From Rhodothermales bacterium (lineage in GTDB: Bacteria; Bacteroidota; Rhodothermia; Rhodothermales; DASSAV01), in NCBI GenBank assembly GCA_041690215.1, contig JAWLHQ010000005.1, positions 234,349 to 298,348 on the forward strand: 64,000 nt of DNA, given 5' to 3'. Below the pieces are notes generated by a model. The model did no database searches. It was not told where the DNA came from and worked only from the letters and a program-made list of their open reading frames with translations. Position numbers and translations under genes: made by a program. Of the stretch, positions 20,394 through 39,884 are shown piece after piece. Within the stretch, counting starts at the first letter, position 1, and each line of letters begins with the position of its first letter.

Positions 20394-20536
20394 AATAACG
20401 CTCGCTTGATTACGCATGGGGATGCTGCCTGGTCTGCTTCACCGGCCAGCGGGAGGATTCTGTATCACCGGACCAGAACTCCCTCCCGCTCGCGAGCGGC
20501 GAATGGCTGCAGCCAGGAGTCGGAAAAGTGCCTTGC

Positions 20537-23500
20537 TCAGAAGTAGAGCTTTACACCGAAGAAGATGTCGCGCTTCTCGATGAAGAGGAAGTTGTAGAAG
20601 CCCGGCAGGTCGATGTCGTCTCCCTTCCAGTCACCCGGACGGTACTTGCCTGTCGTCTTCCCATCTTTCTCCACCTTGAGGCCGAGAGACTCCATGTAGG
20701 CCCTGAACTCCTGCTTGAAGAACTCATTGTCGTCCCAGACCCAGTTGTCATGGATATCCGCGGTCCCCTGCTGCGTCATGTTGCGTTTATTGAAGACGTT
20801 GCTCACGTCTATGTAGAACAGGCTGGAGAAGCGGCCCTGCCGGAAGAGATCCTTCGAGAAACGCAGGTCCCAGCGGGAGTAGGGACGCCAGCGGACGTTG
20901 TTCTCGATGAGAGGTAATTGCTCGGGATTCCACGTGAACTGCTTGCCGCGCTGCCACGTGTAGAGCAGGTTCACGTTGATACCGCCTAACAATGAGAACG
21001 ACTCGTTCCCCGGCCCGAATCGATCCGGCGTGTGGAAGTCTATGTTCGCCTTGATGACGGGCCGCACGTCGGCATCAGATACCTGCGACGAGACGAACCG
21101 CGGCTGGCGCGTCGGATCTTCGTAGAACTGATCGTACCCGAACTCGCCCTCGGTTTCGACTCGGTAGTCGAAGCTCGTCCAGCCGCTTACGAAAGGAACC
21201 GTATTCCGGCGCAGTTCGAGGAGTGCCTCGAAGCCGCGCACGTCCTTGAACCGCTGGTTCGTACGGGTGGTGTAACTCGCCCCGCCGAAATTGATCGGGA
21301 AAAACTGGGTGTTGTCGTACTCGTTGTTGATGTCGCGGTAATAGCCCGTCAGCCGGAGGTTCATCCGGTTGAACAGGTTGTGTTCGTACCCAAGTTCGTA
21401 CGCGATCGTCCGGGAAGGCTCGAGATCAGGGTTGCCAATGTTGTTGACCCGGAACTGAGCGTTCCGCTGCCGTTGCACCCGGTACATGTCCAGCGCGTTC
21501 GGCCACTGGTAGGCATGCCCGTAGTTGAAGAAGATCTTGGCGACGGTCGTGATCGGGTGCGAAATCCCGATACGCGGGCTGAGAACCACGTGCGTGCGCC
21601 GCTTTGACGGGATCGCGTCGAACTCATCCGCCCGCCCGCCGAGCAGGAACTCGGAGTAGGGCCCGCCCTCCGGATCGTTCGGGTCACCTGCGATGAGCGC
21701 GGGGAATTTCGCCGTATTCAGCCAGTCGGCTCGGACCCCCAGGTTTGCCACGAGTCCTTTGAATTCCAGCTTGTTCTGCACGTAAAATGCACCCATCCAG
21801 GGGGTCGCATTTGATGCTGTCGAGTCGCCGCCGTTGACCGAAGGGTCAATCGCGTTGTACATCTGGAATACTTTCAGACGCTCGACTTCGAATCCAGCCT
21901 TCACCTGGTTGAACCGGTTTACCTGGCTCGTCACACTGCCCCAGAGCCTGGATTGCCGTGAATAGGTTTCGTTCTGGCGGATATTGCACGAGGACATACG
22001 GAAGACGCCGCTCTCGTCACGGAACTGGTCCGGCATGTATCCCCAGGGAGCTTCGTCGTAATAGTAGTCGCCGATCTTGATCTTGGCCCAGTCACGCCAG
22101 TTCTCCCAACCGACTACCCCCTGAGCCGCAAGTGCATCCGCTTCTTGCTCCGTACCGATGAGGCCTTCGAGACGGCTCGTGAGGCCCCACGGGGACCCCG
22201 GAACCGGCGCGGTATTGCGGACTTCCTGGAGCATCTCGTAGTCGGCGCGGGAATGCGAGAAGTCCAGCTGGAAGAACGTGTTGGCCGAGACCGTATGTGT
22301 GATCGTACCGCCGTAAATCTGTCGTGTCTGCTGGCCCGGTACGGCGCAATGCAAGTACCACATCTTGTTCATGGCACCGTCGATCGAACGGAACGGGTTG
22401 CTTGAAATGAACCCGTCGATGGACGGTCCCTGTCCGCCGTCACCCCCCTCCTGCCGGGCATAGAAGCCGTGCAGGTTCAACCGCGTCTTGGGTGTGATAT
22501 TCGTGGTGATACGGGCGCGGAACGAGTTATCCGTATAGGCGCGGTTGACCGTACGCGGATTGTACTCGGTCTGCTGCCGGTCATACGAAACGAAAAATTT
22601 GACGGAGTTCAAGAGCGGAACCGGTCCTCCCAGGGTGAATCCCGCCGTATAGTCGGGCAGCGTTCCGTACTCGTGGATGGCATCGTCCATGCTCACGTCA
22701 TACCCCATCTCGCGCAGTTTCTTGATGGAGTCACGCGAGCGGTGCCGCCACAGATAGCGCGCATACAGTTCCTGCGCGCTCTGCTCCAGTTCGGCCTGCG
22801 TCCATTTACCATCTTTGACGCCGTCCTTGAGGTCTACATAGTGTGGACCTGCGAGCCCCTCGTTCTCAGCGTTCGCGTAGAACCCCTTCCATCCGGCTTC
22901 GAAAAACGGATTCGGAATCCGTTCGCCATTCGCATCGAGCTTGTACGTCACTCCGTCCGGCTCCATCAGATAGCCCGTGAAAGCGCCCATCGTAGGATCG
23001 ACGAACGGCTGAACGACCGGGGAATCGTGGCTGAACAGCATCGGGCCGAAGTGCTTGATGCCCGGTGCGCTGTAGCTGAAGTTGATGGAGCCGGAGTAGA
23101 CGTCACCTCCCTCCTTCGTAGCCACGTTGACGACGCCCGTCTGTAAATTGCCATACTCCGCCGCGAAACCACCCGTCTGGATCTTGACCTCCTCAACCGC
23201 GTCGAGGTTGACCTTGAAGTAGGGCCGGTTCGTCAGCGCATCCCCCTGAGACACACCATCCACGATGAACAGGGCCTCATCGAACGCACCGCCCCGGATA
23301 CCCGGACGATCCTCATAGGCGCTGATCGAGTTCACGCCGACCGTCGTCCCGACTACGCTCGTGACATTCTGAAACCGCCCGGCCTGAATTTCCTCCGCAC
23401 TGATATTGCGCTGCGTACCGGATATGTCCTGCTGAATGATCGGCGCATCGGCGATGACGACGACCTCATCCAGTCCGACGGTTTCCTCTCCGAGCGAGAA

Positions 23501-23794
23501 GTTCACCTCTGTGGTTAGGTCGATATCGACATTCACCCCCTGGATGACCTGAGGCGCGTACCCTATGAATGACGCACGCAATGCGTACGTACCTGGACGA
23601 ACGTTCAGGATGTTATAGTACCCGTCCAGGTCGGTTATCGAACCCTGTGTCGTACCGTCGATTACGACGCTCACTCCCGGCAATCCCTCGCCGGACTCGG
23701 CATCCGTAACCCTACCGGCAATCTTGCCTACCTGTGCCATGGCCGAAGCCGGTATCAACAGGGTCAACAAGGCCAGTAACTGTACTCTTCTCAT
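20537..23794 (-). CDS. TonB-dependent outer-membrane receptor with N-terminal carboxypeptidase-regulatory-like domain
   Basis: 1085 aa. Signal peptide. GKIAGRVTDAESGEGLPGVSVVIDGT...GYYNILNVRPGTYALRASFIGY is a CarboxypepD_reg-like segment. Plug-like segment follows. C-terminal ...FFGVKLYF beta-barrel terminus. Confidence 0.9.
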   Translation of the reverse strand: MRRVQLLALLTLLIPASAMAQVGKIAGRVTDAESGEGLPGVSVVIDGTTQGSITDLDGYYNILNVRPGTYALRASFIGYAPQVIQGVNVDIDLTTEVNFSLGEETVGLDEVVVIADAPIIQQDISGTQRNISAEEIQAGRFQNVTSVVGTTVGVNSISAYEDRPGIRGGAFDEALFIVDGVSQGDALTNRPYFKVNLDAVEEVKIQTGGFAAEYGNLQTGVVNVATKEGGDVYSGSINFSYSAPGIKHFGPMLFSHDSPVVQPFVDPTMGAFTGYLMEPDGVTYKLDANGERIPNPFFEAGWKGFYANAENEGLAGPHYVDLKDGVKDGKWTQAELEQSAQELYARYLWRHRSRDSIKKLREMGYDVSMDDAIHEYGTLPDYTAGFTLGGPVPLLNSVKFFVSYDRQQTEYNPRTVNRAYTDNSFRARITTNITPKTRLNLHGFYARQEGGDGGQGPSIDGFISSNPFRSIDGAMNKMWYLHCAVPGQQTRQIYGGTITHTVSANTFFQLDFSHSRADYEMLQEVRNTAPVPGSPWGLTSRLEGLIGTEQEADALAAQGVVGWENWRDWAKIKIGDYYYDEAPWGYMPDQFRDESGVFRMSSCNIRQNETYSRQSRLWGSVTSQVNRFNQVKAGFEVERLKVFQMYNAIDPSVNGGDSTASNATPWMGAFYVQNKLEFKGLVANLGVRADWLNTAKFPALIAGDPNDPEGGPYSEFLLGGRADEFDAIPSKRRTHVVLSPRIGISHPITTVAKIFFNYGHAYQWPNALDMYRVQRQRNAQFRVNNIGNPDLEPSRTIAYELGYEHNLFNRMNLRLTGYYRDINNEYDNTQFFPINFGGASYTTRTNQRFKDVRGFEALLELRRNTVPFVSGWTSFDYRVETEGEFGYDQFYEDPTRQPRFVSSQVSDADVRPVIKANIDFHTPDRFGPGNESFSLLGGINVNLLYTWQRGKQFTWNPEQLPLIENNVRWRPYSRWDLRFSKDLFRQGRFSSLFYIDVSNVFNKRNMTQQGTADIHDNWVWDDNEFFKQEFRAYMESLGLKVEKDGKTTGKYRPGDWKGDDIDLPGFYNFLFIEKRDIFFGVKLYF

Positions 23795-24312
23795 GGAATG
23801 GCCCTCCTTGATTAGTACGTCTGCCCTTCACTCCACCCCATCCAGGCACGTTGGGGACGGAGTTATGGCGTATGTTTGCTACCGAAACGAGCACAGAAAG
23901 CGCTTCCTGACAGGCCGCCTTTCAGCAGCACAGGGAAAGGCTGTACCCATGCCCACATCTCGTGCAGGGATAATCAGGTACGCGGCTGATGTCTACTATC
24001 CTGGCGCCCTGCCCTTCTCCTTCAGATCAGCGGTGAGTCGCAAGTGGGTGATCGCTCACCGCCTACCGGGCGGGCGTAAACGTCCGTCTATGAAAGGTGC
24101 CGCCCAGGGAGCCCCAGAAGCCGTTCCGGTGTGTCTCCTGTGTGGCACGAGCGTTCTATTTCAAGGTGGGGCGGCCCAAGTTAACGCTTAAGGAGAAGAA
24201 CGGAGCGGCAGGCGGTCACGGTGAGAACGGGATCATCCTGCAGCACCTCTCATCGTCACGACCTGAAATGCCGGGGGACGGCACCTCGTGACAGGCTTGG
24301 GACGCAAAGGCG

Positions 24313-24341
24313 ATTCTACAAAACCGCCACACGCATGTCAA
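24313..24341 (-). promoter_or_regulatory. candidate sigma-70-type promoter (TTGACA-N17-TAGAAT) facing the TonB-receptor operon
   Basis: On the minus strand, TTGACA (24341-24336), a 17-nt spacer and TAGAAT (24318-24313). It is not known whether this organism uses this consensus. Confidence 0.35.
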
Positions 24342-24371
24342 GGCAATTTCACGGTGCCTTGACATGCGTGT
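24329..24371. promoter_or_regulatory. perfect 17-bp inverted repeat overlapping the candidate -35 box (possible operator)
   Basis: ACACGCATGTCAAGGCA (24329-24345), a 9-nt spacer, then TGCCTTGACATGCGTGT (24355-24371). Confidence 0.55.
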
Positions 24372-24486
24372 CTAGAATTACACGGAGATCATTTTCCACA
24401 AACCCAAAAAAACGGCCTCCAGAATAACTTCTGCGCGGATGTAGAAAAAAAGCTTGCCAGATCTGCCCCTGAACCCACCACACCTG

Positions 24487-24600
24487 CCCGGAAACCTGTT
24501 CAGCACCCTCAAACAGATCAATCCGGCCAATTTCCGGCCCCAACCCTCCCCCGACAACGTCACGCCCCGCCCAGAGCCAGGCAGCGCACAGCCTGAAGAA
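24487..24600 (+). repeat. degenerate copy of the modular intergenic repeat family
   Basis: CTCAAACAGATCAATCCGGCC...CCCTCCCCCGACAACGTCACGCCCC...GCCAGGCAGCGCACAGCCTGAAG aligns with modules a, b and the CCAGGCAGC core of the other copies. Confidence 0.45.
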
Positions 24601-24830
24601 CCTCTCTCAAACTCACTATGACCGCTGAGGAGCGTCAGTCATCCTAGAATGAGCGGGCCTGAGGGCACATGTATACTGCTCCGTAATCGGGCGCCATCCC
24701 GAGCGCGGCCGGGGACACGAGGCGAAACCGACTGTCGGAGAAATCCCACAAAAGAGCACCACGATCAGGATCAATCTCTTCGCCCAGCATGACACATGAC
24801 GAACATACCAGATGCCCCGGACGCACTCGT

Positions 24831-25949
24831 CTACTGGGCCGCCTCCGCAAACGCCGCGTAGTCTGTCTCGATCACCTCAGGCGCAGCCACTCCGGTGTAG
24901 ATGATGATGCGGTGTTTGAACGTCGTGGACTCACCGGCAGCAAGGCTGAAGTTCAATTCCTCCTTCCCACCACTCAGGTCCTTTTGCCCGAGTGGGTTGG
25001 CCGCAAAGAGCCCGTAACCGCGGGCATGCCAGTACGTGGGGAATCCGGGATTCTCGGGGTTATCCAGAATCACGACGCTCACAGAGTCCCCCTCCAGGAC
25101 GCCGGATAGCCGCATCCACCGTCCTCGCGTTCCCCAGACGTCCTCTCCCTCGATGCCCTCACTGCTGAGGTAGTGGCCCGTCACGCCCTCGTTGTTCAGA
25201 ACCGCGACCTCCGTCGGCTTGCCGCTGGCATCCGTAAAGATCTCTGGCTTCGTGGCGGGATGCTCCAGCGCACGCGTCACCCGAAGGCCGAGGACCCCTT
25301 CCTTATTGTCCTTCAGGCTCACGGGCTCATCGAGCGCTGTCAGCGTAGTAATCCGGTCGATAGCTCGTTTACCATCTTCGTAGGCGCGGAAAACATAACG
25401 CGTATTCTCCTCAAGCAGCACGTCTCCGCTCGGGTTGACCCACTCGGCTGAAACCTCCAACACACCCTGCCCCTCTCCGCCTTCGGCGGTATTGATCATG
25501 GTATGCCGGATCGTACCCATCTTGGCAACACGATCCCCAGTGATCGCGTCCGAGTTATTCCAGAAGTCGAATCCGTTCACGTCCCCGTAATTGAACCACA
25601 GGCCGATGTGATGCGGGTGGTCCGTCCGTTCGCCTGCCTTCTGCTCAAACGGGTAGCCGCGCGTAATGGCTTTCCCGTTCGCCGTCAGGATCGGATACAG
25701 CACCGGCTTCTTCAGAACCGGAAGGGCGTCCGTGTAGAGATAGGATGTGAACGGCTGCCCGCCGACAAACACATCCACACGCTTCTCTGCATCGTTCCGA
25801 ACCAGCTCGACTCTCCGGGCACCGGCCTCCGACGGCGCCGCGTCGCCCTCTCCGGGGACATCGGACTGGCAGGCTGCGATCCCTGCAGTAACGGCTGCGA
25901 CAACAGCCAGCGAACACGCGTTGCGAATACCGGTCTTTAAGCTGATCAT
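24831..25949 (-). CDS. DUF6807/PmoA-family protein (secreted)
   Basis: Lipoprotein-like signal ...AGIAAC. TDHPHHIGLWFNYGDVNGFDFW and YWHARGYGLFAANPLG are signature segments of this family. Confidence 0.85.
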   Translation of the reverse strand: MISLKTGIRNACSLAVVAAVTAGIAACQSDVPGEGDAAPSEAGARRVELVRNDAEKRVDVFVGGQPFTSYLYTDALPVLKKPVLYPILTANGKAITRGYPFEQKAGERTDHPHHIGLWFNYGDVNGFDFWNNSDAITGDRVAKMGTIRHTMINTAEGGEGQGVLEVSAEWVNPSGDVLLEENTRYVFRAYEDGKRAIDRITTLTALDEPVSLKDNKEGVLGLRVTRALEHPATKPEIFTDASGKPTEVAVLNNEGVTGHYLSSEGIEGEDVWGTRGRWMRLSGVLEGDSVSVVILDNPENPGFPTYWHARGYGLFAANPLGQKDLSGGKEELNFSLAAGESTTFKHRIIIYTGVAAPEVIETDYAAFAEAAQ

Positions 25950-26037
25950 AGGTTACTCGGTTCAGTGTGACGGTTCGTAAAAGCACGGCAGGCCGTGCCG
26001 CTGCGTTCGTTCGAGTCCGGAAGTTCACCCGATCGCA

Positions 26038-27381
26038 TCAGGCAACGACGACCTCCTGCTGCTCATCGTCGAACGTGATGCGTTTGCCGGTTTGGATGGC
26101 TGCGATGTTCATGATGAGCGCGATTGAGTGATTGTAGGCCGCCCGGACATCCGCGTTGGGCGTCTTGCGGCTCCGAATGCATTCCATCCAGTTGCGAACG
26201 TTGGCCGAGGTCGCGTCATCCACGCCAGTATTCGCCGCCGTTTCCATACCGCCTGCCGCGGCCAGCTTCATCTCGGAAAGCAAATTGGCCTGCATACCCA
26301 TCGCCTTTGCGTGGTTCTCCTGCAGACCACCTTCCGCCGAGATCGTGTTCGTGTCCAGGTTAAGGGTGCCGCCATTCGAATAGTAGATCTCTTTTACGCC
26401 GCCCGCCGAGTTCGTCATCCGCGACGAATAGGTTACCTGGAATCCTTTGTTCGGATTGTCGAACGGGCCGTAATCGAACACGGCTGTCATGGTATCCCAG
26501 TTGCGCCGTCCGTCGTTCCAGAGGTAGATCCCTCCGTTGGCGACGACGCTCCTGGGCCGCGGTAGACCGGTGAACCAGTGTACGGTATCGATCTGATGAA
26601 CCAGCCACTGGTCTGGAATACCGGACGAGTAGGGCCAGAATAGGCGGAATTCAAGGTACTTCCGCGGGTCCCACTCCTCATAGGGACGATTCATCAGGTA
26701 ACGGTTCCAGTCCGTATCCTCCTTCCGGATCGCAGCCACTTCCCTCGGCCGGCGCCAGCGCCCCGGCTGGTTGACGTTCCACGTCATCTCGACCGCCACG
26801 AGATCGCCGAACTGGCCGGACTTAATGTACTCGTTCGCGAGCTGATAATTGCGTGCGCTCCGCCGCTGCGTACCGACCGCAAACACCCGGTCGCTACCCT
26901 CTACCGTTTTCAGCCCCAACCGCGCATCATCGATGGTATTCGCCCAGGGCTTCTCCGAATAGACGTCCTGCCCCGCATTGATGGCTTCTACGGTGTGAAG
27001 CGCATGCTGAAAGTCCGCCGTACTGATAATGACCGCATCGGTCATTCCGGAGTCGTACAACTCCTCGTTGTTCCGGTAAGGCGTAACCTTGCCGCCTGTT
27101 TTTTCCGATATGGCCGCGGCTCCCTCCTCACGGCGCTTGTTCCAGATGTCGGAGACCGCCACGATCTCCATGTTCAGCTCACTGCTATGCTTAAGGAATG
27201 CGGGAATCAACGAGCCGCGCGCCCGGTCGGAGTACCCCACGATCCCCACACGCACACGGTCGTTCGCGCCGATGATGCGCGCGTAGCTGTACGCGGGCAT
27301 GCTCATGGCGATTCCGGCCCCGGCCGCGCCAGCAGCCGCCTTCTTGATGAAATCCCTTCGTGAGCTCGTGTCATTCAGCAT
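26038..27381 (-). CDS. Tat-exported Gfo/Idh/MocA family oxidoreductase
   Basis: Twin-arginine signal SRRDFIKKAAAGAAGAGIAM. Rossmann start VRVGIVGYSDRA. Confidence 0.9.
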   Translation of the reverse strand: MLNDTSSRRDFIKKAAAGAAGAGIAMSMPAYSYARIIGANDRVRVGIVGYSDRARGSLIPAFLKHSSELNMEIVAVSDIWNKRREEGAAAISEKTGGKVTPYRNNEELYDSGMTDAVIISTADFQHALHTVEAINAGQDVYSEKPWANTIDDARLGLKTVEGSDRVFAVGTQRRSARNYQLANEYIKSGQFGDLVAVEMTWNVNQPGRWRRPREVAAIRKEDTDWNRYLMNRPYEEWDPRKYLEFRLFWPYSSGIPDQWLVHQIDTVHWFTGLPRPRSVVANGGIYLWNDGRRNWDTMTAVFDYGPFDNPNKGFQVTYSSRMTNSAGGVKEIYYSNGGTLNLDTNTISAEGGLQENHAKAMGMQANLLSEMKLAAAGGMETAANTGVDDATSANVRNWMECIRSRKTPNADVRAAYNHSIALIMNIAAIQTGKRITFDDEQQEVVVA

Positions 27382-27521
27382 GGCAGCCTCCTTAAGCGTT
27401 TAAGTAAAGAACCTGTCTTATCTCCGCATCACGTATACCTCCTCCGTTGTCTCATCTGAGCTGCCCGAACAGCAGACCGCCCGTTTGAAGGCGGTCTGCT
27501 GTTCGCGGCTGGTAGTCAAAC

Positions 27522-28928
27522 TCACGATAGCAGCTTCATACCGTCCGGATCCCAGGCATACGGACGCCTGGTCTCATAGCTCAGGTTTGCCAGGAGTGGC
27601 GGCGCCGCGGCGCGATAGCCGAACACCGGACCCTCCACGACCGGCTTACCCTCACGGATTCCTGCAAAAAAGTCAGCGAAGTGGTCCAGACGGTCGTCGT
27701 ATCCCTGCGGTACCCTGTATTCGATGCTCTCGTCCAACTCGGCAGGCGGACTCGTCGGATGCTCGCGGCGATACTGCTCCACGAACTGCCGCTGCACCTC
27801 TTCCGAGAACGTGAAGACCGAGTTGTAACCTTCGACCAGTTGCTGCTCTGTCGGCGGGCGCATGGGACGGCGTGACAGGCGGAGCGTACCACCTTCGATG
27901 CTCATCGCCCCCTCGTCTCCAATGAACCGGAAGACCGTCCCGCCTCCACCACCATGAGCGAAGTTCGTCTGCAATGCCAGGGTAAAGTCCGGATGCTTAT
28001 CCGTTTCCGGGTACTGGTACAAACCCAGCATGACATCCGGAGCGTCCCGGCCATCCTTCCATTTGCGGATCCCCCCCACCGCATAGATCTCGGTCGGGCC
28101 CTTCGCACTGATGGCACGGTGGATACCCGTGAACAGGTGAACGAAAAGGTCTCCGGCCACACCCGTTCCATAGTCCGAATAATTGCGCCACCGGAAGAAA
28201 CGTACGGCGTCGAACGGACGCTTCGGCGCGTTCCCCAGGAACGTATCCCAATCGACGGTCTCGGGCGACGCATCGGGCGGAATCGAGTATTGCCAGGCCC
28301 CGAGCGATGAATTCCGGTTATACGAGGCCTCGATCATGTTCAGCCGTCCGATGGCTCCGGCCTCGAACAGTTCCTGCGCCTTGGCGAAGATGAGCGAGCT
28401 TGCGAACTGGCTTCCCACCTGGAGCACGCGGCCCGTCCGTTCCTGCGCGGCAATCACCTCCGGGCCCTCCTCTACCCGGTGCACCATCGGCTTCTCGAGG
28501 TACACGTGCTTGCCTGCTTCCATCGCATCTACCGCGATCTGCTTATGCCAGTGATCCGGCGTGGCTACGATGACCGCATCGATATCCGGCCGGGCCAGAA
28601 TCTCCCGGTAATCGCGCGTCGTGAAGATGTGATCGCCGTAAACCTCCTTAACCCGTACGAGCCGGCTGTCGTAAAGGTCGGCAGCCGCGACGAACTCGAC
28701 GCCGGGCACCCGCAGAGCCGTATTGACATCGCTGTACGCGATGATACCCATTCCGATGGACGCAATCCGAATCCGATCGTTCGGAGAAACCGGCTTGAGC
28801 GGTTCCGCTGTCAACAGTTGAGTCCGGCTGCCCGCCAGCGCGGAGGTTGCGAATCCTGCAGCTACCGTGGAACTAGCTGCCAGCTTGAGAAAGGAGCGTC
28901 GCGATGTACTTCTGCCTGCCATCTGCAA
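27522..28928 (-). CDS. Tat-exported Gfo/Idh/MocA family oxidoreductase
   Basis: SRRSFLKLAASSTVAAGFA Tat signal. IRIASIGMGIIAYSD Rossmann start. EKPM motif. Confidence 0.9.
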   Translation of the reverse strand: MQMAGRSTSRRSFLKLAASSTVAAGFATSALAGSRTQLLTAEPLKPVSPNDRIRIASIGMGIIAYSDVNTALRVPGVEFVAAADLYDSRLVRVKEVYGDHIFTTRDYREILARPDIDAVIVATPDHWHKQIAVDAMEAGKHVYLEKPMVHRVEEGPEVIAAQERTGRVLQVGSQFASSLIFAKAQELFEAGAIGRLNMIEASYNRNSSLGAWQYSIPPDASPETVDWDTFLGNAPKRPFDAVRFFRWRNYSDYGTGVAGDLFVHLFTGIHRAISAKGPTEIYAVGGIRKWKDGRDAPDVMLGLYQYPETDKHPDFTLALQTNFAHGGGGGTVFRFIGDEGAMSIEGGTLRLSRRPMRPPTEQQLVEGYNSVFTFSEEVQRQFVEQYRREHPTSPPAELDESIEYRVPQGYDDRLDHFADFFAGIREGKPVVEGPVFGYRAAAPPLLANLSYETRRPYAWDPDGMKLLS

Positions 28929-29057
28929 GGAACCCTTAGATTGTTAAGGTGCAACAACATTGCGGTAGAAAGCCCTGCCATAAACGGGCGTCTCTACACG
29001 GATGCTTCAATAAACAACGTTCACACGGTAGTCACAAGCCCGGCCTGCCATTTCCGG

Positions 29058-30386
29058 CTAAAGCGCCCAGGACGTCCGGTATTCTGAAATCAACAAAGCC
29101 TCTGCCTCGGGCAGATCGACGGCAACTTCCCGCTCTCCGTCCCACTGAATCTGCCGCCCGAGGCGGTACGCCACGTTCCCGAGCATCGCCGTACTGCTCG
29201 ACCGGTGGCCGATCTCGATATCGCAAATCGGCTTCTCTCGGGATTTCACGGAGTCCAGGAAGTTGGCGATGTGTTTACTGCCGTCGTTGCCTTCGTTCTT
29301 CAGTTCCAGCGGCTCCAGGCTGCTCCCCTTCTCCGGCATTAACTTGAGCACGCTGCGGTCGACGAACAGCGTCCCGTTCGTCCCGTGAAACATGATGCCG
29401 TAGCCGTGCCCCTCCATCGGGAAACCGTTATCCTGGCGATTCTCGTAGGTCGCAACGAACGTCGGATACTGGTATGTAGCCACGATAGTATCCGGCGTGT
29501 CGCGGTTGTCCTGGAGATAAAACTTGCCGCCCACGGCCGCAACCGACGTAGGATAGTCGACCTCCATGGCCCACTGCACGATATCGAGCAGGTGAACCCC
29601 CCAGTCCGTCATCATGCCTCCGGCATAATCCCAGAAATAGCGCCACGTTGCCCACCGCGTGAAGTTGCCTTCGGCATCGACCGCAACACCGAACCGGTTG
29701 GCATTGTAGGGCACACGTGGAGCCGGTCCGAGCCACATCTCCCAGTCCAGCCCTGCAGGCGGCGCGCCGTCCGGCGGATTGCCAATCCCTGCCGGATACT
29801 CGTTGCCATAATTCCAGGTACGGACAAAGCTGATCGGGCCCAGCTTGCCGCTTCGCACGATATCCACGGCGTTCTGAAATACGAAGCTGGAACGCTGCTG
29901 CGTGCCAACCTGCACGATGCGGTTGTTTTTCCGCGCCGCCTCGACCATCTGGCGTCCCTCGGAAACCCGTACCGCCGTGGGCTTCTCGACGTAGACGTCC
30001 TTCCCGGCTTCGGTCGCAAGGATGGTGTTCAGCGCGTGCCAGTGATCCGGAGTCACGACAAAGACCGCGTCCACTTCGGGCCGTTCGAGCAGCCGTCGGA
30101 AATCCGTATACGTCTGTGCGTCCGGAGCCCGCTGGGCCGCCCAACGCAGATTGGGCTCGTAGACGTCCGACAGCGCAACCACCTGCGCCGTCGCCGCATG
30201 ATCTTGCAGGAGCCGTTGCAAGTGCCCGCGCGCCTGTCGGCCCATCCCGATGATTCCGATCCCGATCCGCTCATTGGACCCGAGAATACGGGCATAACTC
30301 GATGCGGGCATACCGACCGCAGCCCCGGCCAACCCGGCCGCAACAGTCTTGACGAAATCCCGGCGCGTAGCAACTGAGATCGACAT
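29058..30386 (-). CDS. Tat-exported Gfo/Idh/MocA family oxidoreductase
   Basis: TRRDFVKTVAAGLAGAAVGM Tat signal. IGIGIIGMGRQARGH Rossmann start. VYVEKP motif. Confidence 0.9.
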   Translation of the reverse strand: MSISVATRRDFVKTVAAGLAGAAVGMPASSYARILGSNERIGIGIIGMGRQARGHLQRLLQDHAATAQVVALSDVYEPNLRWAAQRAPDAQTYTDFRRLLERPEVDAVFVVTPDHWHALNTILATEAGKDVYVEKPTAVRVSEGRQMVEAARKNNRIVQVGTQQRSSFVFQNAVDIVRSGKLGPISFVRTWNYGNEYPAGIGNPPDGAPPAGLDWEMWLGPAPRVPYNANRFGVAVDAEGNFTRWATWRYFWDYAGGMMTDWGVHLLDIVQWAMEVDYPTSVAAVGGKFYLQDNRDTPDTIVATYQYPTFVATYENRQDNGFPMEGHGYGIMFHGTNGTLFVDRSVLKLMPEKGSSLEPLELKNEGNDGSKHIANFLDSVKSREKPICDIEIGHRSSSTAMLGNVAYRLGRQIQWDGEREVAVDLPEAEALLISEYRTSWAL

Positions 30387-30404
30387 GACGCGGCCCTCCG
30401 GTGG

Positions 30405-31295
30405 TTAGCCAAGAGATACGGTTACGCTGGGCGCACCCAGCCCGGCCAGCACGCCCCGCATATACGCGAAGGATTCCAGCATGCCCGGCAGCGGATCGTC
30501 GGCGTTGATTTCGTACTCGAGATTGACGTACCCCTGGAAGTCCATCTTGATGAGCTGCCGAAAAATATCGGCAATCGGCATCTTCCCGCGTCCCACGATC
30601 ACCTGGCTCTCCCTCACCATGAGGTCACTCAGGTCCTTGATGTGCATATCGAGGAGCCGGGGTCCGGCGTCTGCGATGGCCGCCACCACATCCGTACCTG
30701 TACGCGTCGTGTGCCCCACGTCGATGCAGAGCCCCATGCGCGGGTCCATATCTTTGATGACCTCCAGCGCATCGGCAGGAGCCGGATAAAACTTGTCCTC
30801 CGGACCGTGGTTGTGGATCGCGACCTTGATGTCGTACTGCTTGGCGAACCTCTCTACGCGCGGCATGATCTCCGGAGCCCCCGTTACCACCATAAGCGGC
30901 ATGCCGGCATTCTTGGCATACTCGAAGTACTTGCCAACATCCTCGTCCGTATCCTCCTGGAACGTGATCGTGCCGCCGCCGACGACCTGCAATCCGGCAT
31001 CGGCAAAGTCCTTCCGTGCCGCCGCATACTCTTCCGCCGTGCTCTCATACGGAAGATGGAACGACTTGATGTTGACGTATGGCGTGCCGATCTCCTTGAT
31101 CATCGCAATCGCCTCGGGCCGGCTGAACTTGCGCAGCGAGTAGCTCGCCACCCCCAGTTTAACGCCGCCTTTCACCGCGCCTGCACGAGCTACACGGACC
31201 GGCTCTGCAAAGGCCTGCATGGGCGCAACGGCAACACCGGCCAGCCCCACAGCCGCCCCTTTCAGGAAATTCCGTCTCGATTCCCCTGCTGTCAT
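30405..31295 (-). CDS. Tat-exported sugar phosphate isomerase/epimerase (xylose isomerase-like TIM barrel)
   Basis: SRRNFLKGAAVGLAGVAVAP Tat signal. IAIHNHGPED, DVGHT and YVNLEYE metal-ligand-like motifs of the AP endonuclease 2/xylose isomerase-like fold. Confidence 0.88.
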   Translation of the reverse strand: MTAGESRRNFLKGAAVGLAGVAVAPMQAFAEPVRVARAGAVKGGVKLGVASYSLRKFSRPEAIAMIKEIGTPYVNIKSFHLPYESTAEEYAAARKDFADAGLQVVGGGTITFQEDTDEDVGKYFEYAKNAGMPLMVVTGAPEIMPRVERFAKQYDIKVAIHNHGPEDKFYPAPADALEVIKDMDPRMGLCIDVGHTTRTGTDVVAAIADAGPRLLDMHIKDLSDLMVRESQVIVGRGKMPIADIFRQLIKMDFQGYVNLEYEINADDPLPGMLESFAYMRGVLAGLGAPSVTVSLG

Positions 31296-31378
31296 GATAG
31301 CCCCCTGGTCTAAGTTGATGGCTCAAACGGTAGGAGTTGGGTTTCAGGTACCAGTGATCTCACTACCCGAACACCCTC

Positions 31379-32242
31379 TTATTGCTCCGCAGGCAGCGGG
31401 CGCACCTTGATATTCCGGTACCACACATCGTCGTTATGGTCCTGAAGAACGATGTGCCCCTTCCGGTTATCCGCAAATCCTTGGATATCCTTGTACTTGC
31501 TGGCAGCCAGATATTGGTTGAATTCCTCGCTGCCGATCTCGTACTCCACGACCTTCTCGCCGTTCAGCCAGTGCTCGACGTGGTTGCCCTGCTTCACGAT
31601 GCGGCCCTGGTTCCACTCTCCCGTGGGTTTCATCTTCTTGTTCGCGTTCGGCGGAATCATGTCGTAGAGAGCGGCCGCCGTGCGGTTTCCGTTGACGCCC
31701 ATCTTCGCATCCGGATGCAGGCTGTCATCGAGCACCTGATACTCGAACCCGAGCGCCGCCCGGGCCATGGGGTTCCTCAGCGACATTTCTTCCGAGACGT
31801 TGTACTTCACGCCGCTGTTGGCGCCGGGGCTCAACTTGAAGTCAAAAGCGAACTCGAAATTATCGTAGGTATCAACCGTTATCAGGTCGCCCCCCCGAAG
31901 CGGCTGCCCGTCAGGAGCGACCGGCACCTTGCCGCTGGCCACCTTGTGCAGGGTGCCATCCTCGATGACCCAGTGCTGCGCGGGTATCGAATCCTGCCCG
32001 ATGCCGCGCCAGTTCTCAAAGCTCTCGCCGTCAAAAAGGAGAATCCAGCCCTCTGCTTGCTCCTGGCTCGTGAGCGTGTTCACCGCCGCAACGGCCGTTT
32101 CACTCGCGTCCCCCGCCGGAGCGGGCTCCGCCCGGTCCCCTGCACAGGCACTCACCGTACAGGCAACGAGGCCGGCAGCTGATGCGGATAGCAGCATGTG
32201 CAGGGTGGACGATGTGTGCCCGGTCAGGTCTCGGTAGAACAT
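31379..32242 (-). CDS. DUF1080 (3-keto-disaccharide hydrolase family) secreted protein
   Basis: GWILLFDGESFENWRG, FEFAFDFKLSPGANSGVKY, GFEYQVLDD and HIVLQDHNDDVWYRNIKVRPL are typical DUF1080 segments. Confidence 0.88.
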   Translation of the reverse strand: MFYRDLTGHTSSTLHMLLSASAAGLVACTVSACAGDRAEPAPAGDASETAVAAVNTLTSQEQAEGWILLFDGESFENWRGIGQDSIPAQHWVIEDGTLHKVASGKVPVAPDGQPLRGGDLITVDTYDNFEFAFDFKLSPGANSGVKYNVSEEMSLRNPMARAALGFEYQVLDDSLHPDAKMGVNGNRTAAALYDMIPPNANKKMKPTGEWNQGRIVKQGNHVEHWLNGEKVVEYEIGSEEFNQYLAASKYKDIQGFADNRKGHIVLQDHNDDVWYRNIKVRPLPAEQ

Positions 32243-32527: not shown

Positions 32528-33862
32528 CTACTCCTCAAGCGACTGCTGCAAAGCCCACCGCTGAGCACGCAGGGTATGCTCCAGTTCCCGCTCGCCGTGG
32601 GCGGTAGACCAGAAGAAGGCCTCGAACTGCGACGGCGCGAGGTATACCCCCTGCGAAAGCATGGCGTGGAAATACCGGGCGAACTGCTGCGTACGGCTGG
32701 TAAGTGCCGTATCGTAGTCCACGACCTTGTTCTCCGTAAAGAAGAGACATCCCATCGACCCGACCCGCGTAGTATAATAGTCCAGGCCGATGGCGCGAAG
32801 GTTCTCACGAGTCCCCTCCTCCAGCGCGGCCCCGTACGTCTCGAGCCGCTCGTACAGATCCGGCGAATCCGCGATGATGCGAAGCATCGCAAGCCCGGCG
32901 TTCATGGCCAGCGGGTTGCCGGACAGCGTACCGGCCTGGTAGACCGGCCCCGCAGGCGAAATGTAGTCCATAATCTCCCGCCGCCCCCCGTACGCCCCGA
33001 CAGGCAGACCGGCGCCGATGATCTTTCCGAGCGTCGTCAGGTCGGGTTGTACGCCGAAACGCTCCTGCGCACCGCCGCGAGCGACGCGAAAACCCGTCAT
33101 GACCTCGTCGAAGATCAGCACGATCCCTTCTGCATCGCAGAGGGCGCGCAACCCCTCCAGGAAACCGGGCTCGGGAGGAATGCATCCCATATTCCCGGCC
33201 ACGGGCTCGACGATGATGCACGCCACCTGGCCTGGGTTCGCATTCACGAGGTCACGGACATGCTCGATGTCGTTGTAGCGTGCGATCAGTGTATCCTGCG
33301 CCGTACCGGGAGTCACGCCGGGCGAGTTGGGAACTCCCATCGTAAGGGCGCCGCTTCCCGCCGCGATCAGGAAGAAATCGGCGTGACCGTGGTAATTACC
33401 CTGAAACTTGATCACCTTGTCGCGCCCCGTGAATCCCCGCGCCAGGCGTGCCGCACTCATGGTAGCCTCTGTGCCGGAATTCACCATGCGGACCTTCTCG
33501 ATGGAGGGCACCAGTTCGCAGATCAGTTCGGCCACTTCGATTTCCACCTTCGTCGGCGCACCGAACGAAGTGGAACCGGTCGCTGCCTCCTGCACGGCCC
33601 GGACTACGTCCGGATGCGCATGCCCTAACAGCATGGGGCCCCAGGATCCCACGTAGTCCACGTACCGGTTTCCGTCGGCATCCTCCAGGTAGGCCCCCTC
33701 TGCGCGATCGATGAAGAGGGGCGTCCCTCCCACACTCTTGAACGCCCGGACCGGCGAGTTGACACCGCCCGGAATCACCTTCTGGGCACGCTCGAACAAG
33801 TGCCTGCTGGTTTCCGGCGCGTGAATGATGTCCTGACTGCGTGGTGGGGGAAGTGTGCTCAT
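32528..33862 (-). CDS. hemL: glutamate-1-semialdehyde 2,1-aminomutase
   Basis: Start [10 protein letters not shown]... at 33862 (the track ORF extends to 33994). [25 protein letters not shown] and [20 protein letters not shown] are hallmark HemL segments. Confidence 0.92.
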
Positions 33863-34003
33863 GGCGTATGTGTCGTCAGCCTGAAGGCAGAAAGGATGCA
33901 ACGTATTCCAAAGGAATGTACGCATACACTCAGGGACAGGACAGGTCGTATCCTTGAAGAATCGATTCCCTTCGGATGCATGCGTCCGGCCCAAAGTACC
34001 GGT

Positions 34004-34618
34004 TCAAACGGGCGTATCTGGCTCCACGCGGCGGTAAATCCCTTCGAGGCGCAGATGGTCCGTGGACGTTCGCCGTGGGACTTCGGCGAGAGCCAGGCCG
34101 TTCTCCTCCATCATCTGCGTGAGTGTGTCTTCTGTATAACTGAACTGTGGACCGCTGTCGCTGGCGTATTCTGCCTCTTGGGTGCGCGGGTTGAACGCGG
34201 GGTCGAGCGCCGGGACGGCTACATAGATCCACCCGCCTGGCTTGAGGACGCGGCGCGCCTCGACGAGCGCGCCGCTGAGTTCATCGTAGGAGGTAATGCT
34301 GTCAAAAGTATCGTAGGCGATGACCCAATCGAAAAAATCGTCCGGATACCCCAGCGCATCGATCCGTAGAATCGGGGTAATCCGCCGCTCCGCCTCTGCC
34401 GGCCCCGCCTGCTCGGCCACCCACGCCCGCGCACGCAATACCGCCTCTTCTTCCACGTCACAGGCGTATGCGTCGAATCCGAGTTGAAAAAGCGGCAGCG
34501 TGTGCCGTCCGTTGGAGCAGCCCAGTTCCAGGATGGTGCTGCTGGCCGGAACGGCAGCAAGGGTGCGAAGCAGGTGATCGGATAGTTGAGTCAAGCTGAC
34601 GTCGGATCTTGGATTCAA
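34004..34618 (-). CDS. class I SAM-dependent methyltransferase
   Basis: Motif I ILELGCSNGRHTLPL. LKPGGWIYV post-I region. Confidence 0.8.
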   Translation of the reverse strand: MNPRSDVSLTQLSDHLLRTLAAVPASSTILELGCSNGRHTLPLFQLGFDAYACDVEEEAVLRARAWVAEQAGPAEAERRITPILRIDALGYPDDFFDWVIAYDTFDSITSYDELSGALVEARRVLKPGGWIYVAVPALDPAFNPRTQEAEYASDSGPQFSYTEDTLTQMMEENGLALAEVPRRTSTDHLRLEGIYRRVEPDTPV

Positions 34619-34713
34619 GATGCGCGCAGGCTCACCTCGCAGGTGCAGGAACGGGCCACCGGGTGTTCATGCTGAAACCGCGCGCCCGGTCAAGGATAGC
34701 ATGCGCGTGAACC

Positions 34714-36003
34714 TTAACGATTCGCACGGGAAGCGATGGCAGATGACGTAGTGGTAGTCCACTGCCGGGCCTCCGTGATCTTCTCACACTGGTGGCATCG
34801 CGTGCAACGCTCTGCCGTCGGGAAACGCGGCATCTGATCGAGAGGACGAAGCGTATACTCCTGTGAGACCGGTGCCCCGTCACCGCTGGACCCGAGCCAG
34901 CTGGCAGGCCGACCCACCGGCGCAAGCTGAGCCGCCACCGCTTCGGCCAGCGCCTCGATGAACAGCGGATGGCAATTGAGGCCGGAAGTTACTTCGTAAT
35001 GCTCGATGCCAAAGTGCTCGGCCTCTGCACGGACCTCCACATCCAGCTCATACGCGGTCTCGACGTGATCCGTGACGAACGCTACCGGTACGACGAGCAC
35101 GCTCTTGTGCCCTTGATCCGCCAGCTCTTTGAGCTTGTCAGGCGTGCTCGGCGTGAGCCATTCTGCAGGACCGACCTTGCTCTGGAACGATACGTGGAAG
35201 GGCCGGTCATGCCCTCGCAGGTTCATCACCTGCTCGACGGTCGAATGAATGAGGCAGCAATATGGATCGCGGCGCTCCTTCATCTCCTTGAGCGGGGTAC
35301 CATGCGCACTGAAGATGATCTGAACCTTGGACCGGACGTCCTTTGGGAAACGCTGAAGCCCTTCGTCCATCCGCTCGCTGATCGCCCGGATGTACTTCGG
35401 ATTGGCTGCATATTCGAAAACGTACGTGGTCGGCCACGATGGAATCTCTTTCTCTTCGGAGAGCATCCACCAGTACAACAGGGAAGAGCCGGTCGTGGTC
35501 TTCGAGTACTGCGGATAGAGCGGCAGCAACACGACCTTCGTGATGCCGTCCTCTACCATCCTCGCCGCGGCCTCTTCGCTGAACGGATGCCAGTACCGCA
35601 TCGCGATGTACGTCTTGAACTCGACCCCGATCTCTTTCCCGTACTTATCGTTCAACACGCGCATGAGGCGCCCGGCCTGTTCCCGCGTCAGGCGATTGAT
35701 CGGCGACCCCCCGCCGATCACCTCGTAATCCTTTGCGACGGACTTCGACCGGGTCTTGGCAATAAAGCTCGACAGCCAGTGACGGAGGATTCCGCCAAAT
35801 GGCATGTCGATGATGGCCGGGTCCATGAACAGGTTGTAGAGAAACGGCCGCACTTCCTCCGTCTTGTCCGGCCCGCCGAGATTCAGCAGGACGACACCCA
35901 CCCGGTCACCCGGCTCCACCGTAAGCGGCGCCGACGGAAAATAACGTCCGGTAATCAGCCGCTTGTCGTACCGGTACTTCTTGAGAAACTCACGTGGCGT
36001 CAT
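34714..36003 (-). CDS. hemH: ferrochelatase with Cys-rich C-terminal extension
   Basis: VGVVLLNLGGPD start, LPLYPQYSKTTTGS and FSAHGTPL motifs. Extra C-terminal segment of about 70 aa containing CTRCHQC. Confidence 0.9.
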   Translation of the reverse strand: MTPREFLKKYRYDKRLITGRYFPSAPLTVEPGDRVGVVLLNLGGPDKTEEVRPFLYNLFMDPAIIDMPFGGILRHWLSSFIAKTRSKSVAKDYEVIGGGSPINRLTREQAGRLMRVLNDKYGKEIGVEFKTYIAMRYWHPFSEEAAARMVEDGITKVVLLPLYPQYSKTTTGSSLLYWWMLSEEKEIPSWPTTYVFEYAANPKYIRAISERMDEGLQRFPKDVRSKVQIIFSAHGTPLKEMKERRDPYCCLIHSTVEQVMNLRGHDRPFHVSFQSKVGPAEWLTPSTPDKLKELADQGHKSVLVVPVAFVTDHVETAYELDVEVRAEAEHFGIEHYEVTSGLNCHPLFIEALAEAVAAQLAPVGRPASWLGSSGDGAPVSQEYTLRPLDQMPRFPTAERCTRCHQCEKITEARQWTTTTSSAIASRANR

Positions 36004-36202
36004 GGACCGCTGCGTAGATGAGAACGGGGAAAGGCTCTAAAACTTAGCTAAGTCTAGCCTTTTTAAGTCCGTTCAGTTCCACTTCCTACTTGAATATTGC
36101 TCAAAGCAAAGCGCACCTTCGCGTTTGAACATCACATAATTAGCCCCGCAATTTCAAGGGCCTGCCTACCGTTCCGCGCTCGAATGAAAGCGGAACCCGG
36201 CG

Positions 36203-37228: not shown

Positions 37229-37439
37229 TCTGACTGTAGAAACTCACAGGAAGGCATACGCATGAAACCGAACCGGTATCCGCCTGCTCGAAGTCTTCAA
37301 GACTTCCAGGATATCCGGTAACGGATAATACATGCCTGAACCTCCGAGTTAAAGGAGAGCCATCCCCATTTTCGACCGAATGCTTCTCAACTCGTCCCTC
37401 CCCCGGCCCCCACACGCCCCGAAGAGATTCGCTCAATGC

Positions 37440-37760
37440 CCTCAAATAGAGCAATCCAACCTCATTCCAGGATCTCCCCACCCCAACATCACGCCCGACC
37501 CTGACCACATACGCGTCAAGGCGCCATGTTCACAACCTCGATCCAGGCAATCCGGCTCACGTTCACCTAAAACCTCCCCCTCACCGTCATGCCCGCGAAG
37601 GCGGACACGAGCGGCGCGACCGACGCAGTAAATCCAGGCAGCACGACCTCAAGGCTACCTACCCGCTGGCGTGAGCACCTCCGAAAGGCCGAAATCAGAT
37701 TAAACCCGGACACCGCGCCATTTCCTTGACACCCCCGACCGAGCATCCAGGCAGCACAAC
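37440..37760 (+). repeat. modular intergenic repeat locus: one short unit, one long unit and a terminal fragment
   Basis: Short unit about 37440-37546. Long unit 37547-37706 with hairpin CCGC-GAAG-GCGG (37593-37604) and core GTAAATCCAGGCAGCACGACC (37628-37648). Fragment ...CATCCAGGCAGCACAACC at 37744-37760. Confidence 0.8.
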
Positions 37761-37785
37761 CACCACCATGCGCTCCGCTCTGATG

Positions 37786-39868: not shown

Positions 39869-39884
39869 AACCACCTTTTCAGTA

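Follow-up and report, generated by a model that had tools for sequence, protein, structure and literature searches.

An alternative to the classical glycosidases has recently been worked out in gut Bacteroidales, in which glycosidic bonds are cleaved with broad specificity by a route of oxidation, elimination, hydration and reduction. In this system a Gfo/Idh/MocA oxidoreductase with tightly bound NAD (BT2158/AL3), exported through the twin-arginine translocation (Tat) pathway, oxidises C3 of the glycoside, the TIM barrel BT2156/AL1 eliminates beta-aglycones, and the 3-keto-sugar most likely re-oxidises the dehydrogenase (PMC8121099; bioRxiv 10.1101/2024.03.25.586180). DUF1080 enzymes act as 3-keto-alpha-glycoside lyases and 2-hydroxy-3-keto-glycal hydratases, 3-ketoglucose drifts to a furanose form, whose accumulation slows the recycling of the cofactor, and the gut enzymes handle uronides and galacto-configured glycosides poorly (Nasseri et al., bioRxiv 10.1101/2024.03.25.586180). 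Here we describe a cluster of six genes in a stretch of 64,000 nucleotides from a Rhodothermales bacterium (assembly GCA_041690215.1, contig JAWLHQ010000005.1, positions 234,349 to 298,348 of the forward strand; hereafter the window, with position 1 as its first letter). The same three families lie side by side in it as in BT2156-BT2160/AL1-AL5, namely Tat-exported Gfo/Idh/MocA oxidoreductases, a DUF1080 lipoprotein and an AP_endonuc_2 TIM barrel, and they are accompanied by an extra partner, a protein of the DUF6807 family. The cluster probably encodes an exported multi-enzyme system, fed by an outer-membrane receptor, that cleaves glycosidic bonds by the 3-keto-glycoside route.

Related chemistry is found in several other arrangements. 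In Agrobacterium tumefaciens the GlycDH-AtOGE-AtHYD-Gfo operon performs oxidation, elimination, hydration and reduction, with TIM barrels serving as eliminase as well as hydratase (Bitter et al. 2023, PMC10628242). The four-step logic and the use of TIM enzymes on 3-keto intermediates are the same as those proposed here, but that operon has GlycDH, one additional Gfo and two TIM barrels, and neither a DUF1080 nor a DUF6807 gene. Caulobacter crescentus has a periplasmic 3'-ketolactose route made up of LacABC and an exported DUF1080 protein (Price et al. 2022, PMC9007349). There too a glycoside is converted to its 3-keto form in the periplasm and then meets an exported DUF1080 enzyme; however, the dehydrogenase is the membrane-bound, three-component LacABC, described as cytochrome c-dependent, and not a Tat-exported oxidoreductase with a bound nicotinamide cofactor. 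Glucose-fructose oxidoreductase (GFOR) of Zymomonas mobilis is Tat-exported, holds NADP tightly and converts glucose to gluconolactone, by oxidation at C1, in a redox-neutral ping-pong reaction (PMC8121099). It shares the Gfo/Idh/MocA family and Tat export with the window's oxidoreductases but is less similar to them than AL3 is, and it oxidises free glucose, for which no lyase or hydratase partners are needed. Finally, GH4, GH109 and the NAD-dependent sulfoquinovosidases run the same oxidise-eliminate-hydrate-reduce chemistry with all steps in one active site, whereas separate lyase and hydratase families accompany the dehydrogenases in the window; GH109 and the sulfoquinovosidases are themselves Gfo/Idh/MocA-fold enzymes.

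Six exported proteins and their relatives in 3-keto-glycoside cleavage

The cluster consists of six consecutive open reading frames (ORFs), all on the minus strand, that together span 24831-32242. An earlier note on this DNA had claimed six co-directional genes of particular families there; all six ORFs are present, and a Pfam scan agrees with the family named for each protein. In reading order they encode a DUF1080 protein (PF06439, "3-keto-disaccharide hydrolase"; 31379-32242, 287 residues, Pfam E-value 2.7e-46), a xylose-isomerase-like TIM barrel (PF01261, AP_endonuc_2; 30405-31295, 296 residues, 1.5e-18), three Gfo/Idh/MocA oxidoreductases and a DUF6807 protein (PF14100, annotated "PmoA family"; 24831-25949, 372 residues, 1.7e-77). 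The oxidoreductases are called GFO_C (PF01408 plus C-terminal domains; 29058-30386, 442 residues, 8.6e-23), GFO_B (PF01408; 27522-28928, 468 residues from a TTG start, with an alternative ATG two codons inside it, 3e-21) and GFO_A (PF01408; 26038-27381, 447 residues, 1.3e-12) below. The gaps between the six genes are 18-140 nt, and a single operon is plausible from this spacing. Promoter and terminator scans of the window gave match counts at chance level, so the operon boundaries rest on the spacing.

All six proteins carry export signals. Tat signals were scored with the NCBIfam model TIGR01409 (cut-off 16.7 bits), which the TIM protein and all three oxidoreductases exceed (20.5, 18.9, 17.6 and 23.5 bits over the four proteins). 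The twin-arginine strings that had been read in these four proteins occur verbatim (SRRNFLKGAA, TRRDFVKTVA, SRRSFLKLAA and SRRDFIKKAA), and in database gene calls from related loci the RR motif is kept in 6 of 6 TIM and 4 of 4 GFO_A orthologues; for the TIM protein the motif is at least 90% conserved. The lipoprotein-type signal that the earlier note gave to DUF6807 also held up, with a lipobox IAAC (...GIAAC) whose Cys is found in 5 of 6 orthologues among the database gene calls. DUF1080, on whose signal that note was silent, has the lipobox LVAC or VSAC (...GLVAC / VSAC), with the Cys in 4 of 4 orthologues; a lipobox has likewise been reported for AL2. The TIM protein differs from AL1 in this respect, being Tat-exported where AL1 has a Sec signal.

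GFO_A, GFO_B and GFO_C are mutually about 33% identical. The best NCBIfam family of all three is BT_2158_fam (NF058561), and their best PDB matches are 8tdf and 8tdh, which are AL3/BT2158-type Tat-exported glycoside 3-dehydrogenases (GFO_C to 8tdf/8tdh at E = 1.4e-26, GFO_B to 8tdf at 8.6e-28 and GFO_A to 8tdh/8tdf at 1e-12). The next-best characterised relatives are the C3-oxidising DgpA, which ranks second, behind AL3, among the PDB matches of each of the three (E = 1e-11 to 1e-20), and WlbA-type enzymes. Neither the Lys of the EKP motif nor the catalytic His varies in any of the three proteins, and GFO_B and GFO_C keep the Asp of the D-x3-H motif (Asp248/His252 of AL3). From this homology we predict that GFO_C is a glycoside 3-dehydrogenase with tightly bound NAD(P) and that GFO_B is a second paralogue of that kind. 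GFO_A belongs to a deeply conserved Tat-exported subfamily that is the obligate partner of DUF6807 (below), and its sequence is unusually constant, at 57-70% identity to 40 orthologues from several phyla (within L007-L086; we label loci L and proteins or protein clusters P). The gut system also has a cytosolic oxidoreductase, BT2159/AL4, and no enzyme of that type accompanies the three Tat-exported ones here: the cytosolic-type family BT_2159_fam gives them 25-53 bits against a cut-off of 650.

The proposal that Tat-exported Gfo/Idh/MocA enzymes are glycoside 3-dehydrogenases agrees with these AL3/BT2158 matches, but Tat export alone is an insufficient sign of it, as the C1-oxidising GFOR of Zymomonas is exported in the same way. 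GFOR is among the PDB matches of GFO_C and GFO_B; no GFOR structure is among those of GFO_A at E <= 1e-6, and C3-oxidising enzymes head that list.

DUF1080 aligns with the BT2157/AL2-type PDB chain 8tda (4e-45) and matches BT2157 at seven of eight conserved active-site positions. These are N142, E167, Q169, Y193, K249, Q267 and H269, whose BT2 counterparts are N134, E164, Q166, Y190, K245, Q273 and H275; the eighth (Glu103) falls in a gapped loop of the alignment, with an Asp nearby in DUF1080. The lipoprotein is therefore best described as a predicted 3-keto-alpha-glycoside 1,2-lyase and 2-hydroxy-3-keto-glycal hydratase, and not as the hydrolase of the family name. The nearest PDB sequence relatives of the TIM protein are three uncharacterised Parabacteroides proteins (3lmz at 2e-45, 3p6l and 4kw2). 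An AlphaFold2 model (predicted local distance difference test score, pLDDT, 86.6) has the same three as its best Foldseek matches, followed by generic family members, among them YcjR (a 3-keto-glucoside 4-epimerase), AtHYD (8ro4, the 2-hydroxy-3-keto-glucal hydratase of Agrobacterium) and a C-glucosyl deglycosidase. Its invariant residues include H80, H161-N-H163, D192, H195, H218, E260 and E262, an H-x-H...D...H...E pattern that is compatible with a metal site and whose likeness to the AL1 ligands is judged from spacing only. We predict a metal-dependent enzyme acting on a 3-keto-sugar intermediate, as eliminase, hydratase or epimerase; the fold also houses 3-keto-sugar hydratases, epimerases and C-C lyases, and for this reason the step is not assignable from sequence.

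The 3-keto-glycoside pathway suggested in the earlier note is the best-supported reading of these families and their context, but several tests at the equivalog level failed, and the assignment rests on family-level homology together with gene context. The following results weigh against it. The BT_2158_fam scores are 157 bits for GFO_C, 141 for GFO_B and 75 for GFO_A against an equivalog cut-off of 750, and the alignments with AL3 cover mostly the N-terminal two-thirds (residues about 45-315). In GFO_A an invariant Gln (Q-W-x-x-H) replaces the D-x3-H Asp throughout the 40 orthologues, and the sugar-binding Arg192 and Trp195 of AL3 align with Gly and Tyr in GFO_C. Because of these sub-equivalog scores and residue changes we regard the three oxidoreductases as homologues of AL3 with different specificity, not as its orthologues. 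AL1/BT1 is absent from the phmmer PDB matches of the TIM protein at E <= 10 and from the top 50 Foldseek matches of its model, two absences limited by the fact that the AL1/BT1 structures are solved according to the preprint, with PDB deposition not separately confirmed. The TIM protein belongs to a different, uncharacterised subfamily and is the weakest link of the assignment. In addition, the window otherwise holds no glycosidase or sugar-catabolic gene nearby that would hint at a substrate.

From these relationships we infer the following sequence of steps. A glycoside or oligosaccharide would cross the outer membrane through a TonB-dependent receptor, and a Tat-exported dehydrogenase with tightly bound NAD(P) would oxidise the C3 hydroxyl of its non-reducing sugar. 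The C2 proton, acidified in this way, would allow 1,2-elimination of the aglycone by the metal-dependent TIM protein, by DUF1080 or by both, and DUF1080 (or the TIM protein) would hydrate the elimination product, a 2-hydroxy-3-keto-glycal, to the free 3-keto-sugar. The reduced dehydrogenase would then convert the 3-keto-sugar back to the sugar and so regenerate its bound cofactor, which would make the cycle redox-neutral and independent of a periplasmic NAD pool. GFO_B and GFO_C, whose number varies among genomes, would be the substrate-specific dehydrogenases, and GFO_A with DUF6807 the constant, obligately paired module. DUF6807 may interconvert the anomers or ring forms of the free 3-keto-sugar (or of another reducing sugar) and thus supply the form that GFO_A can use, or it may represent a third type of 3-keto-glycoside lyase or hydratase, not homologous to the other two.

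A fixed frame with a variable set of dehydrogenases

The distribution of the gene set was followed with a DUF6807-seeded scan of one genome per species, which gave at least 599 matching stretches; we analysed the best 80 loci, whose ORFs were searched with the window's proteins. These 80 span Bacteroidota, Gemmatimonadota, Acidobacteriota, Calditrichota, Ignavibacteria and Balneolaceae. In 34 of them the gene directly upstream of DUF6807 is a GFO_A orthologue (560-700 bits), and in 6 more such an orthologue stands within 4 kb; a further 4 are cut off upstream of DUF6807. Some Gfo/Idh/MocA gene is found within 5 kb in 61 of the 80, and 15 contain DUF1080. When 136 DUF6807 neighbours that had no other label were compared with Pfam, AP_endonuc_2 came up most often (19), ahead of Gfo/Idh/MocA (13-14) and DUF1080 (5). 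The reciprocal test, made with four GFO_A orthologues chosen only for their long contigs, found DUF6807 immediately downstream in 4 of 4 loci. GFO_A and DUF6807 are an obligate pair and a modular unit. The pair is frequently found alone, and it is therefore either self-sufficient or active on a common intermediate.

Two unrelated contigs of 5.8 Mb and 8.1 Mb (L089 and L090) carry orthologues of all six genes, at 52-70% identity and in an order almost identical to that of the window, DUF1080-TIM-GFO_B-GFO_C-GFO_A-DUF6807. The closest relative of the window's cluster (L094, one protein of which is labelled by a source as coming from a Rhodothermales metagenome-assembled genome) has a five-gene version, DUF1080-TIM-GFO_B-GFO_A-DUF6807, and L095 a seven-gene version with three middle oxidoreductases. 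GFO_C orthologues at 58-66% identity occur in L089, L090 and L095, and GFO_B orthologues at 56-69% in these three and in L094, L017, L032 and L059. The conserved frame is thus DUF1080-TIM-[one to three oxidoreductases]-GFO_A-DUF6807, fixed at its ends and variable in the middle. Since the same set recurs across phyla, the grouping goes far beyond chance. The earlier note had suggested a multi-substrate or multi-step variant of the pathway, and one to three middle paralogues inside a fixed frame fit its multi-substrate form.

Some of these loci show further features around the pair. In L089 (7344-9621) and L090 (7351-9646) tandem DUF6807 paralogues follow GFO_A, and in L089 a 4-nt overlap of GFO_A with the first of them suggests translational coupling. 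L050 has two adjacent DUF6807 ORFs, of which the one at 10001-11047 is the better match. In L010 a 545-residue ORF about 1.1 kb downstream of DUF6807 encodes an FAD-dependent oxidoreductase (PF12831), a family that matched three scanned DUF6807 neighbours, and 545-residue ORFs stand at the same position in L041, L047 and L060; L010, L041 and L047 are Algoriphagus, and L060 is labelled Limnohabitans.

DUF6807 and the competing explanations

DUF6807 is a large family (3401 clusters at 50% identity when E <= 1e-3 is allowed, 596 when E <= 1e-30 is required) whose members are about 60% identical across phyla and are labelled "PmoA family" or "Methane oxygenase PmoA" by some sources. In the searchable literature we found no functional study of DUF6807, PF14100 or the "PmoA family protein", the results being a mention of the DUF number and a hit in a bioreactor metagenome paper, and none of the newer 3-keto-glycoside papers found there mentions the family. 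Sequence and profile searches of the PDB at E <= 10 returned no relative, and a Pfam scan gave PF14100 only and no aldose 1-epimerase family. An AlphaFold2 model (pLDDT 85.4) nevertheless has a galactose-mutarotase-like beta-sandwich fold. Its best Foldseek matches are stand-alone GalM-type mutarotases (4bze, 3mwx and the 1nsx series; 1l7k is another GalM structure among the best), at E = 2e-6 to 1e-5, with probability 1.0, near full length and with proteins of similar size, at template modelling (TM) scores of 0.35-0.42; 4bze, 3mwx and 1nsx stand at E = 2e-6 and TM 0.38-0.42.

DUF6807 differs from GalM in being a lipoprotein, in its pairing with a Gfo/Idh/MocA oxidoreductase and in a conserved motif of its own, D-H-P-H-H (D110-H-P-H113). 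The conserved polar residues over 91 diverse members are R97, D110 (with H111 and H113), D214, R223, D296, H308/R310 and N318, a polar core that resembles a sugar-binding active site and may include a metal. The catalytic residues of aldose 1-epimerases are His/His/Asp/Glu. A role as mutarotase has to be set against the facts that the likeness is at fold level only (TM about 0.4) and that hhalign gave the DUF6807 alignment a probability of 0.1% against E. coli GalM.

Fusions give a second kind of evidence. At least five protein clusters (P0092, P0242, P0263, P0275 and P0293) join DUF1080 to DUF6807 in one chain, and both orders occur. The DUF1080 half of P0092 shares 52% identity with the window's DUF1080 and has no signal peptide of its own, and the gene context is TIM-GFO-fusion with an oxidoreductase 66% identical to GFO_A. 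In P0028 DUF6807 is joined to a SnoaL/ketosteroid-isomerase-like domain, in P0273 to a 7-bladed lactonase and in P0346 to an SMP-30/gluconolactonase. P0245 and P0324 join it to a metallo-beta-lactamase-fold domain and a peptidase S51 domain, respectively. Obligate adjacency, repeated fusions and a sugar-enzyme fold together are strong genomic evidence that ties DUF6807 to 3-keto-glycoside chemistry. Its fusion partners place it at a free reducing sugar: DUF1080 yields the free 3-keto-sugar, and lactonases take over one step behind an anomer-specific dehydrogenase. Our preferred role, a tentative one, is that of a mutarotase-like catalyst for the free 3-keto-sugar. It is less likely that DUF6807 is itself a lyase or hydratase, in which case GFO_A and DUF6807 would make a minimal two-protein glycosidase.

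This is the first coherent and testable functional placement of DUF6807, and it is new here together with the fixed frame of variable dehydrogenases and the obligate pairing with a Gln-bearing GFO_A. The combined proposal, that DUF6807 is a new catalytic component of 3-keto-glycoside cleavage (mutarotase-like, or a third non-homologous lyase or hydratase) working obligately with the Gln-type GFO_A, that the middle oxidoreductases set the substrate range, and that a receptor and a 714-residue surface protein (below) feed the module, is a possible account that falls somewhat short of even chances. The locus would represent a conserved, fully exported environmental version of the gut route, in which the frame is fixed and the dehydrogenases vary in number. 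If confirmed, the proposal would give a role to thousands of unannotated DUF6807 genes, whose carriers include Bacteroidota, Rhodothermota, Gemmatimonadota and Acidobacteriota among other groups. It could then also account for the continued turnover of periplasmic dehydrogenases whose cofactors do not exchange, a point left open by Nasseri et al., and would improve predictions of how soil and aquatic bacteria turn over glycans and glycosides, which glycosidase-based annotation now misses.

The lactonase-type fusions sit less neatly with the 3-keto-glycoside reading and may also point elsewhere, to C1 oxidation of free sugars, as may the genes found next to the pair in several phyla. GFO_A-DUF6807 is followed by UxaC, UxaA and UxaB or a mannitol-dehydrogenase-family reductase in L004 (11156-18609), L075 (11312-15761) and L078, in Gemmatimonadaceae and Parapedobacter, and L004 has in addition 2-keto-3-deoxygluconate (KDG) kinase, 2-keto-3-deoxy-6-phosphogluconate (KDPG) aldolase and UxuA. 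In two loci of Acidobacteriota the pair is preceded by galactokinase (L030, 7121-8308) or 2-keto-3-deoxygalactonate kinase (L080, 7457-8494). One could accordingly imagine a periplasmic oxidation of free sugars in which GFO_A, and perhaps the others, behaves like GFOR and takes an aldose at C1 to the lactone while reducing a second sugar, DUF6807 is an aldose mutarotase, as its modelled fold would allow, and the products enter sugar-acid pathways; the Tat-exported GFOR with bound NADP is a precedent for the first step. We keep this explanation because of the lactonase fusions and the repeated adjacency of hexuronate and galactose genes, but consider it unlikely. The PDB matches of GFO_A are led by C3-oxidising enzymes with GFOR missing from them (above), DUF6807 is most often accompanied by or fused to DUF1080 and TIM barrels, whose substrates are 3-keto intermediates rather than lactones, and the window contains no lactonase or sugar-acid gene. 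The hexuronate and galactose neighbours can equally be read as a hint of uronide or galacto-configured glycoside substrates for a 3-keto-glycoside route.

Slightly less probable still is a non-catalytic DUF6807, a lipid-anchored sugar-binding or scaffold protein that holds the substrate or GFO_A at the membrane. Its lipoprotein signal would suit such a part, some beta-sandwiches of the mutarotase type serve glycoside hydrolases and phosphorylases as non-catalytic domains (lower-ranked Foldseek matches of the model), and catalytic residues could not be mapped in DUF6807. On the other hand, the identity of about 60% across phyla includes the Asp/His/Arg cluster, a pattern seen more typically in active sites, the best Foldseek matches are full-length mutarotases that stand alone and not accessory domains, and the enzyme fusions in both orders suggest consecutive catalytic steps.

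Plant or microbial natural products, C-glycosides included, might be the substrates, with the TIM protein acting as a C-C or C-O beta-eliminase in the manner of DgpA/DgpBC or GlycDH/OGE/HYD. This would be a substrate-level variant of the 3-keto-glycoside route and not a different mechanism. It is suggested by the rank of DgpA among the PDB matches of all three oxidoreductases, by weak sequence matches of the TIM protein to C-glycoside deglycosidase subunits (7bvr, 7xrf and 9m3a, E = 0.01-0.06), by a structural match to 8qvc at Foldseek rank 48, and by the Agrobacterium operon with its identical oxidation-elimination-hydration-reduction logic. We think it improbable, since generic sugar epimerases match the TIM protein at least as well, and since the known C-glycoside lyases appear, judged by entry names, to need two TIM-type subunits where the window has a single TIM gene. 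All six proteins here carry export signals, and the known Dgp enzymes are not known to be exported.

A conversion of inositols or pseudo-sugars, with the oxidoreductases as IolG-like inositol dehydrogenases and the TIM protein as an IolE-like inosose dehydratase, is very improbable: secondary NCBIfam matches to IolG (62-108 bits) and IolE (30 bits) exist, and inositol dehydrogenases are among the PDB matches of GFO_C and GFO_B, but these scores fall far short of the curated thresholds (355 and 290 bits), on which ground the inositol pathway was rejected; known inositol catabolism is cytoplasmic, unlike this exported set, DUF1080 has no role in it, and no other iol genes are nearby. The levoglucosan (LgdA) pathway was rejected as well (LevoglcsnDh 36-60 bits against a cut-off of 650), and so was a GH109-like single-enzyme glycosidase, no GH109 structure being recognised among the PDB matches of the oxidoreductases at E <= 1e-5, 1e-6 or 1e-8. 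Two structures deposited as "Gfo/Idh/MocA family oxidoreductase", 8qc2 and 8qc3, which we take to be sulfoquinovosidases, are weak PDB matches of GFO_C.

Neighbouring genes in the window

Downstream of the enzyme genes lies a gene for a TonB-dependent outer-membrane receptor (20537-23794, minus strand) with Pfam Plug, beta-barrel and CarboxypepD_reg (carboxypeptidase-regulatory-like N-terminal) domains. Both L094 (56% identity) and L093 (50%, 1071 bits) have an orthologue of the receptor immediately downstream of their cluster, and TonB or SusC/SusD genes adjoin the module in many loci. The window's receptor is the probable importer of the cluster's substrate. It is followed by a gene for a secreted protein of 714 residues (18273-20417, minus strand) with a weak match to TIGR04183, the C-terminal-domain model of the type IX secretion system (T9SS), and with no Pfam match at E <= 5, SusD included. 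This protein is possibly surface-exposed, and a 48% identical homologue stands behind the receptor in L093. The third gene in the row encodes a PorV/PorQ-family protein (17173-18276, minus strand). As the receptor and the 714-residue protein are conserved neighbours, the functional unit is probably larger than six genes and resembles a non-canonical glycan-utilisation locus. This conserved receptor is a further difference from the gut system, as is the lack of a regulator: no SusR, DUF6377 or other regulator gene occurs between 17173 and 34000.

A canonical SusC/SusD polysaccharide utilisation locus was rejected for the window. The receptor matches the SusC/RagA model with its N-terminus only (101 bits against a cut-off of 368), and the next protein has no SusD match; true SusC/SusD pairs flank GFO_A-DUF6807 in other phyla. 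The receptor and the 714-residue protein may form an import or surface module without SusD.

The enzyme genes and the receptor gene are separated by a spacer of about 1 kb (23795-24830) that has no credible ORF, and an Rfam scan found no family anywhere in the window, the spacer included. The spacer contains a sigma-70-like promoter match on the minus strand (24341-24313, TTGACA-17-TAGAAT, 11 of 12 positions), in a window whose total of promoter-like matches is at chance level; if used, this promoter would give the receptor mRNA a 5' leader of about 500 nt.

Directly upstream of the cluster is a run of haem-biosynthesis genes (32528-40946, minus strand) for a HemL-type class-III aminotransferase, a methyltransferase, ferrochelatase, coproporphyrinogen III oxidase and uroporphyrinogen decarboxylase (UroD), interrupted by a pseudouridine synthase. 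A functional link between these genes and the cluster was rejected, as the adjacency is not conserved in related loci. The GC content is even over the whole window, and a horizontal-transfer island was rejected on that ground.

Two genes on the plus strand lie farther away. In the product of one (56151-57140) a YscW-like lipoprotein domain is joined to an MliC lysozyme-inhibitor domain. The other (8044-10386) encodes a 780-residue Big_5-domain protein with a T9SS sorting tail; this tail and the PorV/PorQ-family gene indicate that type IX secretion is in use in the lineage.

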